The position numbers were made by a program, and so were the translations under genes. Source: Zootoca vivipara (taxonomy: Eukaryota). From it: a stretch of 64,000 nt of DNA. The stretch's first letter is position 1; each line of letters starts with the position of its first letter. Below are positions 7,165-60,100 of this stretch, piece by piece. Below the pieces are notes generated by a model. That model made no database searches and had not been told where the DNA came from. It was given only the letters and a program-made list of their open reading frames with translations. The stretch lies in the NCBI RefSeq assembly GCF_963506605.1, contig NC_083281.1, positions 53,568,001 through 53,632,000 of the forward strand, in the 5' to 3' direction.

Positions 7165-7855
7165 GCCTGGTACCAGAGCCTGCAATAAACCCAGATGCTA
7201 ACTTTGCTGCCACATACACACAGATAACACAATTACTGGACCCAACAACATCAAACATACCACCTCAGGCCTATTTAATTGCTAATCTTCTAACATTGTG
7301 TATGCCATCAAATGCCAGCAGTGCCCTTCAGCTCTCTATATTGGACAAACAGGCCAAACCCTATGCCAAAGGATAAATGGACATAAATCTGACATCAGGA
7401 ATCACAAGACAGAGAAACCAGTAGGAGAACACTTCAATCTCCCAGGACATTCTATACAAGATCTCAACGTAGCTGTCTTATTACAAAAGAATTTCAGAAA
7501 CAGACTTGAAAGAGAAGTTGCTGATTACAACTCATCACTAAACTGAAAACTATGGAGAGACCTGGTATTAATAGAGATATTCAATTCCTGTCTCATTACA
7601 TATGCTAATCATCTGCATACTATCCATTGCTTTTTCCTGTAGGACTAATTGCAGTTGTTAACAGTCATCAATAGGTTTACCATACCCATTGAGTCAATCA
7701 CCCATCTCCTACTACCCTCCTGAGAAAAACCCCAGCCTCCCACTATATATAAGGTCCTGGTGACTTCTGTTTCAGTGTATCTGAAGAAGTGTGCATGCAC
7801 ACGAAAGCTTATACCAAGAACAAACTTAGTTGGTCTCTAAGGTGCTACTGGACAA
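7165..7855 (+). mobile_element. 5'-truncated Penelope-like element: GIY-YIG endonuclease remnant plus pseudo-LTR
   Basis: VYAIKCQQCPSALYIGQTGQTLCQRINGHKSDIR...PVGEHFNLPGHS...RLEREVA (GIY-YIG motifs); TATA-like ctatatataag near 7743; terminal ttagttggtctctaaggtgctac shared with the 56945 element. Confidence 0.92.
7777..7814 (+). ncRNA. Minimal type I hammerhead ribozyme motif in the Penelope pLTR
   Basis: gtat-CTGAAGA-a-GTGTGCATGCACAC-GAAA-GC-TT-atac: CUGANGA and GAAA core, palindromic stem II, palindromic AAGCTT mini stem III, 4-bp stem I. Confidence 0.7.
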
Positions 7856-38106: not shown

Positions 38107-38637
38107 TACCATGTATATACTGTAAGGGCATCTTCAAAGTTATATGCCCATTGGGGCAATGCAATTGGGTTGGTGAGTGCTTGGGAGAATGCCTTTTCTC
38201 CAGTGATCCAATGTTGAAGGAATTCTGTTTCAAATGACTTTTGCATAACCCCATCATTGCAAGGCTTCAAATGAGAATCAAAGATGCATTTGTTCCAAAT
38301 AGCTTTTTCTTCTTCTCGATAACAATATTTCACTGCTGTTAATAGCTCTGGTGCTGAATTATTTTATTCCTTTGAATGTTCTTCTACTAAGTAAGATGTT
38401 GCTATGCATTTGCTTGTTTTGTTTTGTAGCTTTTTTATTGTTATAGATTCTTTTGCTGTTTTCTATGCTGCACATACATGATTTATAGAAAGCTTTTTTT
38501 TAATTGTGATTATACATTTAGATGATTGAAACTGCCTTGTGATGATTTGGTCCTAAAAGGGTGTCATTAAAGAAGCCAATGGAGAAATACATGTACACAA
38601 TATCTTTTGCAAAGTACTTTGGAACTCTCATACATAC

Positions 38638-38932
38638 CCACGATGGACATTTCAGGAACAGTTGCATGATATGGGCCATCAACAAACTCGGGGGGATTGT
38701 CATTGATGTCTTGGACCTTAATGATGAATTCCGATGGAGGCTCCAGAGGTTTGTTTGTATCCCTATCAACAGCTTGGGCCGTCAATGTATACTCAGCTTT
38801 TTCTTCCCGGTCAAGTCTTTTCATTGCATGAATGTCCCCTGTCTTGTCATTGATCACAAAGATAGTACCAGCTCCATCACCTGATAGGATGTACTTGATA
38901 TTGCTCATTCCAGGGTCCAAGTCTGTGTGTAG
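38638..38932 (-). CDS. CDH8: Cadherin-8 internal coding exon (most of EC1 and start of EC2; probably exon 3)
   Basis: Translates [98 protein letters not shown](G), with LDRE and DINDNPP calcium-binding motifs. Acceptor catttcag|CTA, donor GTGG|gtatgt, 295 bp, phase 0 to 1. [20 protein letters not shown] and [11 protein letters not shown] match recalled CDH8 better than CDH11. Confidence 0.93.
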
Positions 38933-54870: not shown

Positions 54871-56617
54871 AGTTGCTTTGCCCCTAAGGGAAAGGAAACC
54901 CCATGAACATCCCATTGATGCCTGAGCATGCTGAACTGATATGTAATGCTGATTGACCGTTGGAGGGGGAAATAGGAAACAGTGAAGAAGCGGATGGCAT
55001 ATTCTCAAAAGGGCATGCCTAGAACTCCAAAGAGGAGCACACACTAGCCACAGCTTTTTGTTGCACATCCCACTTAATGCTGAAATCATGCTCCTTGATG
55101 CTTGAACATGACAGATTTCTGAATCTGTACATGTGCATTGGCTCTACCTGAAATTACCTGCATCAGCTGCATTAGCTTAGCTGCTGGATAGGTTTTCTTC
55201 TGGAAAGGTATAAGCCTGAAGGAAAAGAAAGCTGAGAAGGACAATAATCCTCTTCAAGGTAGTGTATAGCTGCAACTGATTACAAAGCAATGAGGCTCAA
55301 CAGAGAACCCCGCAAAGCCTCATTTCTCTACTCTACCATCCCCTTATTTTCTTCAACATTGATTCCAAAAGGCATGTGAAATAGGCATGGATTCTATTTG
55401 AAATGAGGAGGAAATAATAAATCGGGACAGAAAAGGGATTGAGTTTTAAAACTCATCAATCTGAGCCTAAGAGCACAGGGGGGGGGGGAGAAGTAATATG
55501 GAATGATTTCCCGGGATTGCGGTTGAGCCCACAGCCAGGATAAAGAGATGAGATGTGTGTTGTTGGGTTAGCTAGGACCCCAGGTTTCTGAACTTTTAAC
55601 ATAACAAGGAGCTGTACAGCAATTCAAAAACTGTGAGTGGAGGACATCTAAAGTGAGAGGGGCTTTTAGCCCCACCCAAACAGGCAATAGCTAACAGCTT
55701 CCACCCAATCTGGCCACATCTCTTCCAGTACTGAAGGATGCCCTATCCAGTTCAGAATCCTGCAGACAGTGAGATTCTTGATTAAGGAAGCAATAGCCCT
55801 ATGAATGACAGGGTTAGAGAATCCCTGCTCACCGTCTTGGTATCTCCAGGTACTGCAAGAAGGCTGTAGCTCATGGAAGGCCCATAGCTCAGTAGTAGAT
55901 ATGTAAATCTATATGATATATAAATCTATGATTCTGTGACTCTGTAATGTGCAATTCCAAAACACAGGGAGAAAACTGAATAAGAAACATTTTTAAAAGA
56001 TTCCTTAAGCTTCATGAAAACCATGAGAAGAAAACAAAACAAAACAGATAAATAACAGCTGTTGATTTTTAGACACATTTTTGCCTCCTAGTCAATTTCA
56101 GAAAGTGTGATTTCTGTTATTCTTCTGCTTCCTTTAGAAAGGTCAAATGACTAACTCTAAGCTCCTCACAGTGGGCATCATGATTCAATTTTGATGGTCT
56201 CATTTCAACTCCTATTTTTCAAAATCTCTCCACACAGTTTGCCAATATGGCGAGTCCTTCTCAATTAAAACCTATACTGCTCCCGAAAAGAATACTACCA
56301 AACCACTGATTTGCCCTTCAAGCATCATAAAGTATAGAGTGATGTAGCTGACATCACTCCTGCCATGCACAGAAAACAAGGAAGTCTGACATTAAAAAAG
56401 AGATATTTGCAGAAGGCCTTTCAAAATTATCCATACTGAATGCGGTCAGATAAAATATCTGGGCCATTTTGACAAATTCATTAACTCTGTGGATTTAATT
56501 TCAAATTACCACTCTTTACGTGAATATGCACTGGAATTGTGAACAAAATCATTATATTACACTTCTTTTTATGTCTTTGACTCTTCAGATTCAAGAAGAG
56601 ACCTGAATAGTAGAAAG

Positions 56618-56790
56618 GTGATAGTTCAGTGGTAGAGAACCTGGTTGGCATGCAGAATGACCCAGGTCTGATCCCTGACATCCTGAGTTAGGAATGAAAA
56701 AGATCCCTACCTGAATCCCTGGAAAGCTGCTGCCAGTCAGTGTACTGACCTAGATTTACCAATGAACTGATTTAGTATCAGGCACATTTA
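56618..56790 (+). mobile_element. tRNA-derived SINE (same family as 31041)
   Basis: atagttcagtggtagagaacc...gcatgcagaatgacccagg...gctgctgccagtcagtgta. Confidence 0.75.
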
Positions 56791-56944
56791 GTACAGATAC
56801 ATTTAGTATCCCTGGGAACATAACTGAGGCCAAACTGAGCGTATTTTCACAGTGTTTTCTGCTTGCAGTATATTGACCATTTATGGTCAGCCTGTGGTGC
56901 TGTTTCTCTGTATCACTGGTGTTATGTGAAACCTAATGGCTGAT

Positions 56945-57120
56945 TACAGGTAGGTAGCCGTGTTGGTCTGGGTCGAAGTAAAATAAAAAAATTCCTTCAG
57001 TAGCACCTTAAAGACCAACTAAGTTTTTGTTTTGGTATGAGCTTTCGTGTGCATGCACACTTCTTCAGATATCTTTCCAGGGTCTTTAAGGTGCTACTGA
57101 AGGAATTTTTTTTATTTTAC
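56945..57120 (-). mobile_element. Miniature Penelope insertion: pLTR end plus an inverted partial pLTR
   Basis: Homologous to 7777-7850; ~39-bp inverted repeat (56978-57016 / 57081-57120); 12-bp TSD CTAATGGCTGAT (56933-56944, 57120-57131). Confidence 0.9.
57035..57072 (-). ncRNA. Minimal type I hammerhead ribozyme motif, sense to the CDH8 pre-mRNA
   Basis: Minus strand reads atat-CTGAAGA-a-GTGTGCATGCACAC-GAAA-GC-TC-atac, with a predicted CUC cleavage triplet. Confidence 0.7.
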
Positions 57121-60100
57121 TAATGGCTGATGTCATCCTGCATCACTTACTTCCACTCAGCCACAACCACAGTCTCTGAGAGGACTGGAAATTAGAATTG
57201 GCTATTTAAAACCTATTTGTTTCATGCCTGTAGGTGATCCATGTGGTTGGACTCCTGAGTGGTGGGGTGGTCCCATTTGTGCTTATGGATGCACAAGTGT
57301 TAACATGGATGCTCCATTGCAGGTATCATGTGTTCCTTGGAGTTGTTGGAGAAGAGGAGCCAGTGGTCTGTGGCACCGGAGGTGGCTCTAGCAGGTGTTT
57401 AGTGCACGCATGGATGGATTGTGTAGAAAGGACTAATATTTCAAATACATTCAAGAACATGATCTACTCTGCTATGTCAAAAACACGTTGAAGTTATCAA
57501 TTATAATTGTCACTTCTACCATCTATTAGCTCATTCACAATTTGTGAATGAGCTAATAGACTGTACCAACTGTGAAAAATGCCATAAATCACAATGTTAT
57601 TAGTGTCATTCAATAGGAGGTGGCAGCATCTGTCAGGTTTTTGCCAACTTTTTCAAGCTGTGGCAAGTTGGAGTAGGAAACAGCCAATAATTCAAGATGG
57701 TGGCTAACACAGATTCAGACATAATGAGCATAACCTTTTCTGCACACGCACTAGAGTGAAGATTTGTGAGACATAAGTATAGTATATAATCACAATTTTA
57801 ATAACTGTTTGCATAAAATACCTGCAACGAGGAAATTAACTTTGGACTTGGATTTGCATAGAGAATAAAGCATGCCAGATTTCTTTATTGCCCAACTTGT
57901 TGGGAGGCCAACACCCATCATTAGATGAGGTTCTCAGTGCCAACTCACCATGAAATTGAGCTGAGGGGGCATCTCTCTTAACCATCCTGTCCCCATTGTC
58001 CAGCATTCATCAGGGCAGGTTCTTCAGGTCTCAATAACATCAGACCAAGCAAACCTGTCTAGCTGGCAATGTGAGATGATTGGTCAGATGTCCTTTATTC
58101 AGCGGTACATTGAGGTCGTTACGTGGATAGTCACATTGCTATCCACCCTAATTTCCTAGTTGTGACAATATAAAGCAAACCAACAACCAAATGAGGTGCA
58201 TCCCTCTAACACAGAGGAAGTGCACTAGGCCAATCCAATATATCCCTTCAAAAACCCTACCCTGAAACCGATTGGCTAATCTTGCACTGCTTAAATGATG
58301 AGTCACTGCCAAATGATGAAGAGCAAGTTGGAGAGTTCCACATCCCTTTTCACGGAGGAAGCCACTCTCCTCCTATTGTCACAAAAGGCCAGCCATGGTC
58401 TCACCACTGTCTCTCTTGAGATAAAGCCTCATGAGGCTTCCTCTATGCAAAGGGGCGATGGGGCAAAATAACCCCTGCTTTCAAAGGAGGCAACATTGCT
58501 ATGCAATCTGTTTAGAGATTCCGTGTTTTGCAAACATTACTGGAAGCCCGTGTTTGGGAGGGGAACATCATGGAAATACCCATGATGCTATGCACTCAAA
58601 GCTGGCCTATAAATAAGCATTTTTTTTTTTCTAGGAGCAGACACAAACCAACCAATGAGTCTTCTACTAAACAAACTACAATCAGAAAACAGCTGGGGAG
58701 GGGATGAAACATACAATAAGGAGCAAGAAATGAAACATACAAAGAGTTCAAAAAACATGGCATGGAAATAATCTGCTAATGGCATGTTGAAAGTTGTTAC
58801 AAAACCATTTGGGCATATTAAGTTTTGCATAGAAAATATAGCTGTCAGCTATTTTAACATCCAGATGCCCCTTTATTGATTACAACTGGCTCTATAAACA
58901 AACAAGTCATGCCCCTCCAAATTCCTCTAGCAAGGAACAAGCGGGCTATGTAGGACTGAGATAACGTTTACCTTCAGGGGTAACCTGAGAGTTTTACATT
59001 TGCTTAAGGCTTATTTGTTTTAAGCAAAAGGACAAGGCAGAATAGACTGGATTTGACAATAAATGCACTTTGTGAGCCAACTGCAGAGCAAGGCAAAGGA
59101 ATGTGGATGCAATTGGAAGGATGAGAGACGTAGCTCGGAGGGAAGAAGCTCTTCCAGGCGATACCCACATGAGGAAGAAATTAGACGTGAGCAGCTGGAC
59201 AAAATAAAAAAAAATATGTTCCTGAAATGTGGACAGCAAATTATTTGCACACAGCAGAGGTTGCAAAATTGCTTCCTTGTTTTTTATGTTGTGGATGAAA
59301 ATCAGAACAAATGAAGAAGAGACCAGACAGACTGTGTGTCCAGGGGGGGGGGTCCTCTGGAAAGTTTATCTTTCCCTAGTTTACTAATGGACAAAATGCA
59401 TCTCATCACAGCTATGATGGGGGAGAAAGTTGATTTAGTTACATTTTAATACATGCCTACCTAATTCACACTTCCCAAAGCAAAAGCTGAACAAAGTCAC
59501 AGCTATCCTTCAAAATCTGCACTTTTTCATTTTGTGATGCAGTTCTCCAATTTTAAAAAATGCATATATAATGTATACATCCATGAAAAACAGAAATGCA
59601 TGATATTAGGTAAAGTTGAATTCTAAATGCTGACAATTTTTGTGGTGGTTTTTTTTTTAAAAAAAACCATAGACCTGGAAAAATTAGAAACTGATATTAT
59701 TATTATTTTGATTTACAGAATCACCCATTACAGCTATGGCAAATGCATTTATTTTGATAAACAAAGGCTCGCAGGCCATCAATTAATTTGGCAAAGTATC
59801 ACATTGCCTCTTGACTATGTCAGGTTTTTAACTAGAATGTAAGAACATATGAAAACCCTGCTGGATCAGGCTAGTGGCCCATCTAGTCCAGCATCTTCTT
59901 CTCACAGTGGCCAACCACATGCCTATTGGAAGCACCCAGGCTCTGCACTTTGCCCTCAAAGTTGTAGAGGGTTGTAAAATGGTACACCCCTTCCAACAGA
60001 GCACTGCTTTTCTGGCTAAAACAGATTATTGAGTCAAGAATGCTTCCTGCCACATGAGACCCTTGGGAATATCCCATAGTTGTCGTGGTGTCTGCGAAGT

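Follow-up and report, generated by a model that had tools for sequence, protein, structure and literature searches.

The 175 bp enclosed by two perfect target-site duplications (TSDs) within an intron of the cadherin-8 gene (CDH8) of Zootoca vivipara are best explained as an abundant Penelope-like retroelement inserted in two-ended, 5'-truncated form, the long hairpin being a likely by-product of the insertion and the hammerhead ribozyme that it encloses being predicted to be inactive at this locus; we assign to this reading a probability of about 0.88. Positions refer to the window, that is, the whole stretch of 64,000 nucleotides analysed, and the features are collected in Table 1. The TSD, CTAATGGCTGAT, is 12 bp long and perfect, as the initial annotation of this DNA had it, whereas the inserted length is 175 bp and not the 176 bp given there. 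The long piece corresponds to positions -3 to +123 of the leader of an intact 3,030-bp element (the C of CUGA is counted as 0, hence the product of ribozyme cleavage begins at +30), with two mismatches in 127 nt, and this 125/127 identity to the leader of a parent encoding reverse transcriptase (RT) and GIY-YIG domains bears out the Penelope-like origin proposed earlier. The short piece, likewise, is the inverted partial pLTR that had been suspected. The arms of the hairpin (56978-57016 and 57081-57120, 39 and 40 nt) do differ, as had been noticed, by one base in an A/T run (7 versus 8), and the minus strand has a predicted folding energy of -66.3 kcal/mol (z = -9.4), none of 200 shuffled sequences being equally stable. 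On this strand the core reads CUGAAGA-A-stem II-GAAA-GCUC-AUAC, beginning at 57068. The junction filler is a 9-mer of the element ORF and also overlaps a 10-mer in the flank at 56717-56726, 220 bp off; given these matches it was likely templated, and either sequence could have served as the template. A small near-perfect palindrome with 24-nt arms and a 1-nt spacer is located 390 bp from the insertion (57517-57565).

Table 1. Features of the insertion and of its surroundings in the window.
Feature	Position	Strand	Remarks
TSD, left copy, 12 bp	56933..56944		TSDs of 12-17 bp in 21/30 like copies
TSD, right copy	57120..57131		First 1-2 bases fit the element end too
Long piece, Penelope-like 5' leader	56945..57071	-	Begins 3 nt ahead of the ribozyme core, reaches nearly to the tail end
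Tail, 33 nt here, at one end only	56945..56977	-	Tail concept as in the cited parts of PMC11167929 and PMC3846280
Minimal type I hammerhead motif	57035..57071	-	Stem I of 3 bp; predicted cut 57039/57038
Hammerhead parts	CUGAAGA 57068-57062; extra A 57061; stem II 57060-57047	-	Followed by GAAA and GCUC
Junction filler, 9 nt	57072..57080	-	Sits where the family has a stem I base
Short inverted piece; second hairpin arm	57081..57119	+	End of the same leader, without tail
Cadherin-8 coding exon, EC1 into EC2	38630..38932	-	Nearest coding exon found on the downstream side of the insertion; bounds approximate
Another copy of this Penelope-like family, older	7500..7852	+	Antisense to CDH8; no hairpin

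The parent, a tandem unit of 3,030 bp, encodes a 901-aa protein, in which both domains score over the Pfam cut-off (RVT_1, 46.8 bits; GIY-YIG, 23.7 bits), and a leader-to-leader spacing of 3,030 bp at two loci represents the tandem arrangement that forms pLTRs. A CX4CXXC linker precedes the GIY-YIG stretch and fits the CX2-5CXXC linker between RT and endonuclease (EN) given for the Neptune/Nematis type in the cited part of PMC8557442. Judged from its sequence, the parent is thus classed as a Neptune/Nematis-type EN+ Penelope-like element (PLE), with the clade assigned by the linker motif rather than by a tree. Its leader contains, in order, a TATA-like box at about -35 and an initiator-like sequence at about -7 (both labels assigned by eye), the ribozyme, a T-run and the tail, and ends just before the ATG of the ORF; longer copies have the end of the GIY-YIG ORF upstream of the motif, as seen in 4 of 12 ORFs scanned. 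Exact matches to the 34-nt ribozyme motif with its extra A number 17,721 in the 1.44-Gb genome, with none for the reversed control, and a 27-nt arm motif has 20,150 matches genome-wide. A MITE or another separate non-autonomous family was considered and rejected, since junctions and arm lengths vary from copy to copy and each copy has its own TSD. The element 3' end with the ribozyme also occurs in head-to-tail arrays, one consisting of four copies of a 598-bp unit (L125, G000:C1:2777500-2779750) and another of five copies of a 293-bp unit (G000:C3:91909243-91910510), retrozyme-like tandems possibly able to form a dimeric hammerhead.

The host gene is recognized by its exons. The coding exon listed in Table 1 is matched best, among solved structures, by cadherin-8 (184 bits for the stretch versus 161 for cadherin-11), and what we take, by its type II cadherin N-terminus, to be the first coding exon lies on the same strand about 52 kb upstream of the insertion (L105:4846-5316, minus strand), with further downstream CDH8 exons at L114 and L116. 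Since exons flank the insertion on the same minus strand, the ribozyme motif lies, as the initial annotation had stated, in sense within a CDH8 intron; this intron measures about 70 kb, the nearest coding exons found being about 18 kb and about 52 kb away. The older copy of the family in the window carries the same ribozyme motif, intact, at 7781. Other elements are present in the region, namely a 304-aa reverse-transcriptase-like frame at 18695-19606 (minus strand), presumably a CR1-type LINE as labelled by eye, and, in CDH8 beyond the downstream end of the window, a 418-aa open frame with Ty3/gypsy-type gag domains (L115:4430-5683, minus strand).

The arm-to-flank junction is found in DNA contigs of three samples from two studies, extending 24, 35, and 31 letters into the arm, of which the 24-letter junction falls under the 31-letter bar and comes from a sample that may be the assembly's own source. 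Compared with the window, two junction-bearing samples show 8-9 differing sites plus one gap over about 715 bases and, thus, the insertion, being common to these haplotypes, predates their split. In a fourth sample, one run contains a contig that reaches 57120 with 24 further letters and a neighbour that ends at 56938, while a second run contains a contig that ends at 56932 with 44 further letters, a neighbour that begins at 57134, and also a filled-junction contig (57096-57163). These extents, with 30-base overlaps, exactly fit an empty allele, so that this sample is likely heterozygous, and the contigs indicate that the insertion is likely polymorphic for presence and absence, with a putative empty allele in one of four conspecific samples. 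The presence/absence test suggested earlier was worthwhile. The description of the insertion as young agrees with its few mismatches to an intact element and with its likely polymorphism, but is to be qualified in view of its occurrence on haplotypes as different as those above. Nearby, positions 56759-56911 have no contig cover in two DNA runs, and joints 56739 to 56944 and 56739 to 56984 are seen at single-copy depth; this gap may be due to filtering, to a deletion allele or to another locus.

The catalytic core of the CDH8 copy is intact, with CUGANGA, GAAA, NUH, and the G10.1-C11.1 pair, and both the extra nucleotide between 9 and 10.1 and the palindromic 15.2-16.2 are present, in agreement with the minimal hammerhead with minimal stem III described previously. 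In a set of 79 copies taken without regard to the core, 17 differ at N7 and at most 4 at any other position, and this concentration of variation at the free N7 suggests that the source elements keep a working-type core. The extra A, present in 78 of the 79, had been regarded as a caveat; it is not a defect, since all the exact genomic matches carry it and it is the norm of the published family in the cited part of PMC4209133. Helix I falls short of the 4-5 bp of metazoan PLE minimal hammerheads, with 3 bp in the CDH8 copy against 4 in the family, because the G of the family's fourth pair was replaced at the junction. The arms had been proposed to give this stem a long closing helix, but they lie beyond the 9-nt filler and about 19 unpaired bases from it. 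The predicted probability of stem I in the clamped CDH8 copy is 0.06-0.07, with or without 300-nt flanks, versus 0.14-0.17 at best when the arms are removed and 0.38-0.88 in a standard family copy, and 13 of 30 like copies reach at least 0.35. In the model, therefore, the clamp does not help stem I, as had been supposed, but lowers its occupancy (0.06 with it, 0.15 without).

Helix III cannot close in a single molecule, since the paired bases leave no loop. A dimer needs both helix III and helix I between molecules and is, thus, opposed by the intramolecular clamp: the strand-swapped double hammerhead is predicted at -107.7 kcal/mol versus -132.6 kcal/mol for two separate hairpins, although the dimer of a standard copy is also slightly unfavourable (-12.7 versus -15.2 kcal/mol). 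As these folding energies omit tertiary contacts, Mg2+, and protein, they serve to rank copies and cannot exclude activity. The hammerhead model search called for in the initial annotation returned no Rfam hammerhead family among 21 matches at E up to 10 in 56000-58000, and the miRNA families matched were rejected, their scores lying far below the gathering scores and reflecting the hairpin only. According to the published passages cited here, a single minimal hammerhead does not show cleavage (PMC4209133), and the ribozyme of an anole element cleaves only with its protein (PMC11167929). The CDH8 copy is, therefore, predicted to fold its ribozyme worse than ordinary copies do, and CDH8 RNA is likely not cut.

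It has been proposed that the clamp permits cleavage of the nascent intron; alone or with the element protein or a partner transcript, it would then alter CDH8 output. We consider this highly improbable. The intact core, the sense orientation, and the N7-concentrated variation that points to source elements with a working-type core are in its favour, as are the abundant family transcripts, which could serve as partners, and the protein-assisted cleavage of a related element (cited part of PMC11167929). Nevertheless, the monomer lacks helix III, its 3-bp stem I is less populated with the clamp, two separate hairpins are more stable than the double hammerhead, and the motif is one among thousands of like motifs in the genome. 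Moreover, family reads cross 57039 without a drop in three RNA runs (depth at 57037 versus 57046, 2331/2252, 1057/1162, and 621/688) and without a pile of read ends at that position, a weak test of cleavage as the libraries are fragmented and of unstated tissue. These reads derive from other copies of the family, whose transcripts are abundant in the three runs: 94-96% of the reads on the insertion continue unlike the CDH8 locus, and the unique flanks have zero depth in the same raw runs, about 6 in 100 of each having been read.

On transcription of CDH8, the arms would zip into a helix of 38-40 bp, which ADAR may then edit, and the ribozyme would be carried in the transcript without helix III and mostly without stem I. 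In the family RNA reads, A>G mismatches reach 3.1-5.3% at 57037 and T>C mismatches 1.3-5.4% at 57036, versus 0.2-0.3% at the same positions in a DNA run of another sample. Positions 57036-57037 form a TA step, compatible with A-to-I editing on both strands. The mismatches are a hint of family-wide editing, but may also be alleles. Penelope is a massively edited repeat in lizard brain, with over 40,000 sites according to the cited part of PMC5625713. The dsRNA substrate envisaged in the initial annotation is plausible but not particular to this locus, and for lizard Penelope copies it has already been published. Editing of the stem is likely, given its very high stability, but we regard as very remote the prospect that A-to-I editing or processing of the stem exerts even a small effect on the CDH8 pre-mRNA: no read comes from the CDH8 locus, the genome contains over a thousand longer perfect hairpins of the same family, and the nearest coding exons are tens of kilobases off. 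A phenotype from editing is, therefore, not likely.

The enclosure of a ribozyme by an inversion, to which the initial annotation drew attention, is repeated elsewhere in the genome. Inverted arms ending at most 13 nt from the core give 48 matches with arms like those of this locus, 38 with shorter and 140 with longer arms (pattern matches with slight overlap, verified in part; about 220 in total), which led to the rejection of a unique architecture for the CDH8 insertion, and fully head-to-head pairs give 1,307 pattern matches, many counted on both strands. Close inspection covered 30 of the 48 like copies, of which 25 keep an intact core and 29 have the tail at exactly one end, on the long piece in 15 and on the short piece in 14. 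The wider set, formed by the first 100 arm matches on contig C1 and unselected for the clamp layout, includes 54 with an inverted partner upstream within 2.6 kb; these represent 32 distinct insertions, after pairing of rows by ourselves, and 31 of them have exactly one tail, an outcome with a probability of about 8e-9 if tails were independent at 50%. In many longer-arm copies, the inverted arm joins exactly at the cut-site side of stem I, and a perfect helix of at least 50 bp directly closes the ribozyme core; these are true 'clamped' hammerheads and better test cases than the CDH8 locus.

The order of events suggested by these scars is one of paired priming. The endonuclease would have nicked both strands 12 bp apart, and each nick would have primed reverse transcription, one at the start site at the tail end and the other at an inner site about 35-40 nt upstream. 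One cDNA would have run to just ahead of the ribozyme, likely the RNA 5' end behind the TATA-like and initiator-like sequences, while the other would have stopped after about 40 nt, and end-joining would then have fused both cDNAs head to head with the 9-nt filler between them. The hairpin could, alternatively, have arisen from a single cDNA folding back or self-priming, or from a later rearrangement, as the short palindromes and fillers at many junctions might suggest, and self-priming on an antisense template was proposed by Arkhipova et al. 2013 (cited part of PMC3846280). This origin seems unlikely, since it leaves unexplained the regular stop of the second end at the inner site, abutting the TSD, as well as the presence of exactly one tail in 31/32 and 29/30 insertions, whether on the long piece or on the short one. 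Paired priming on mostly uncleaved RNA is supported, instead, by the one-tail asymmetry and by 5' ends located immediately ahead of the ribozyme.

These 5' ends are concentrated in a narrow interval. Among the 100 pieces on C1, 39 end at -13 to +16, including 12 at -5, none ends at +27 to +33, and 27 extend past -320. Genome-wide junction patterns, which required three non-element bases ahead of the position, number 3,241 at -4, an upper figure because the pattern covers all subfamilies and may take in variant upstream sequences, in addition to 16 at +27, 57 at +30, and 13 at +33. The excess at +30, the cut site, is thus 3-4-fold over the two neighbouring controls; it is weak and no more than a lead. 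Of the 57 matches, 30 were inspected; in 4 of these, element sequence persists upstream, which suggests an internal deletion or duplication, and three loci had been counted twice. Microhomology in AT-rich sequence could also inflate the figure. Most simply, reverse transcription would have proceeded largely on uncleaved RNA, with run-off at the RNA 5' end just ahead of stem I. That the -4/-5 pile is run-off at the transcription start, and the +30 excess a trace left in the genome by infrequent in vivo cleavage on the part of a metazoan minimal hammerhead, is a tentative proposal, which we deem improbable; if true, such cleavage would become testable from genome sequence alone. A 3' splice site behind the pile-up is not favoured, as the dinucleotide is AG in one subfamily and AC in the commonest young one. 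Immediately 5' of the -4 junction, a G recurs (in about 70 of the first 100 rows, as counted by eye), which possibly derives from the cap or from the inverted arm.

The CDH8 locus itself seems to matter little, being one of a few hundred similar stubs and among the weaker ones as a ribozyme. Were the CDH8 pre-mRNA cut, a polymorphic transposon ribozyme would be acting on a gene for neural adhesion, a notable case; the evidence argues against this, however, and the family-level pattern of tails and 5' ends is more useful than the locus.

Among known systems, amniote domesticated intronic hammerheads, such as that of RECK, also lie in sense in an amniote intron, but, as described in the cited part of PMC6155905, they are conserved between species and are similar to canonical type I motifs, whereas the CDH8 copy is likely polymorphic within the species and has neither helix III nor an Rfam hammerhead match. 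Domestication was rejected on the grounds of the putative empty allele in one of four samples, which speaks against fixation. A non-LTR retrozyme was also rejected, since it needs head-to-tail hammerhead units (bioRxiv 10.64898/2026.07.22.740005, as far as the cited text goes) and the CDH8 insertion has a single motif and an inverted layout. Poseidon of Anolis carolinensis (Frangieh et al. 2024, PMC11167929, in the part cited) offers a closer mechanistic parallel, as its two RT start sites bounding the tail, its cuts on both strands, and its use of uncleaved RNA as the main template all fit the scars of the CDH8 family. However, Poseidon belongs to another clade: its ATG lies in stem II, whereas the CDH8 family has its ATG after the tail and a linker of Neptune/Nematis type. 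In D. virilis Penelope, an internal promoter resides in the pLTR, according to the passage cited from PMC2377424. Among the openly accessible papers listed by literature searches, supplements aside, none deals with a short inverted pLTR that encloses a ribozyme or with start-site run-off.

The motif itself shares with the minimal type I hammerheads described for metazoan PLEs (Cervera and de la Pena 2014, PMC4209133, in the sections cited) the core, the extra nucleotide between 9 and 10.1, the G10.1-C11.1 pair, and the palindromic 15.2-16.2 without loop 3, but, unlike the motifs described there, its stem I has been cut to 3 bp by the junction and a long helix encloses it. The insertion unit of EN+ Penelope-like elements, as presented in the cited parts of PMC8557442 and PMC3846280, has in common with the present one the TSD, the head-to-head inverted 5'-truncated pLTR, and the tail of 30-40 bp at one end, a one-tail rule that was already described in those articles, and, at the level of the family, the TATA-like and initiator-like pLTR sequence and an ORF with RT and a cysteine linker plus a C-terminal GIY-YIG domain. 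In contrast to that unit, both pieces of the CDH8 insertion are very short, and the inverted piece stops before the ribozyme, which is left in the loop. The CDH8 insertion is, therefore, a member of the inverted-pLTR class of EN+ PLEs that carries a minimal hammerhead shortened in helix I.
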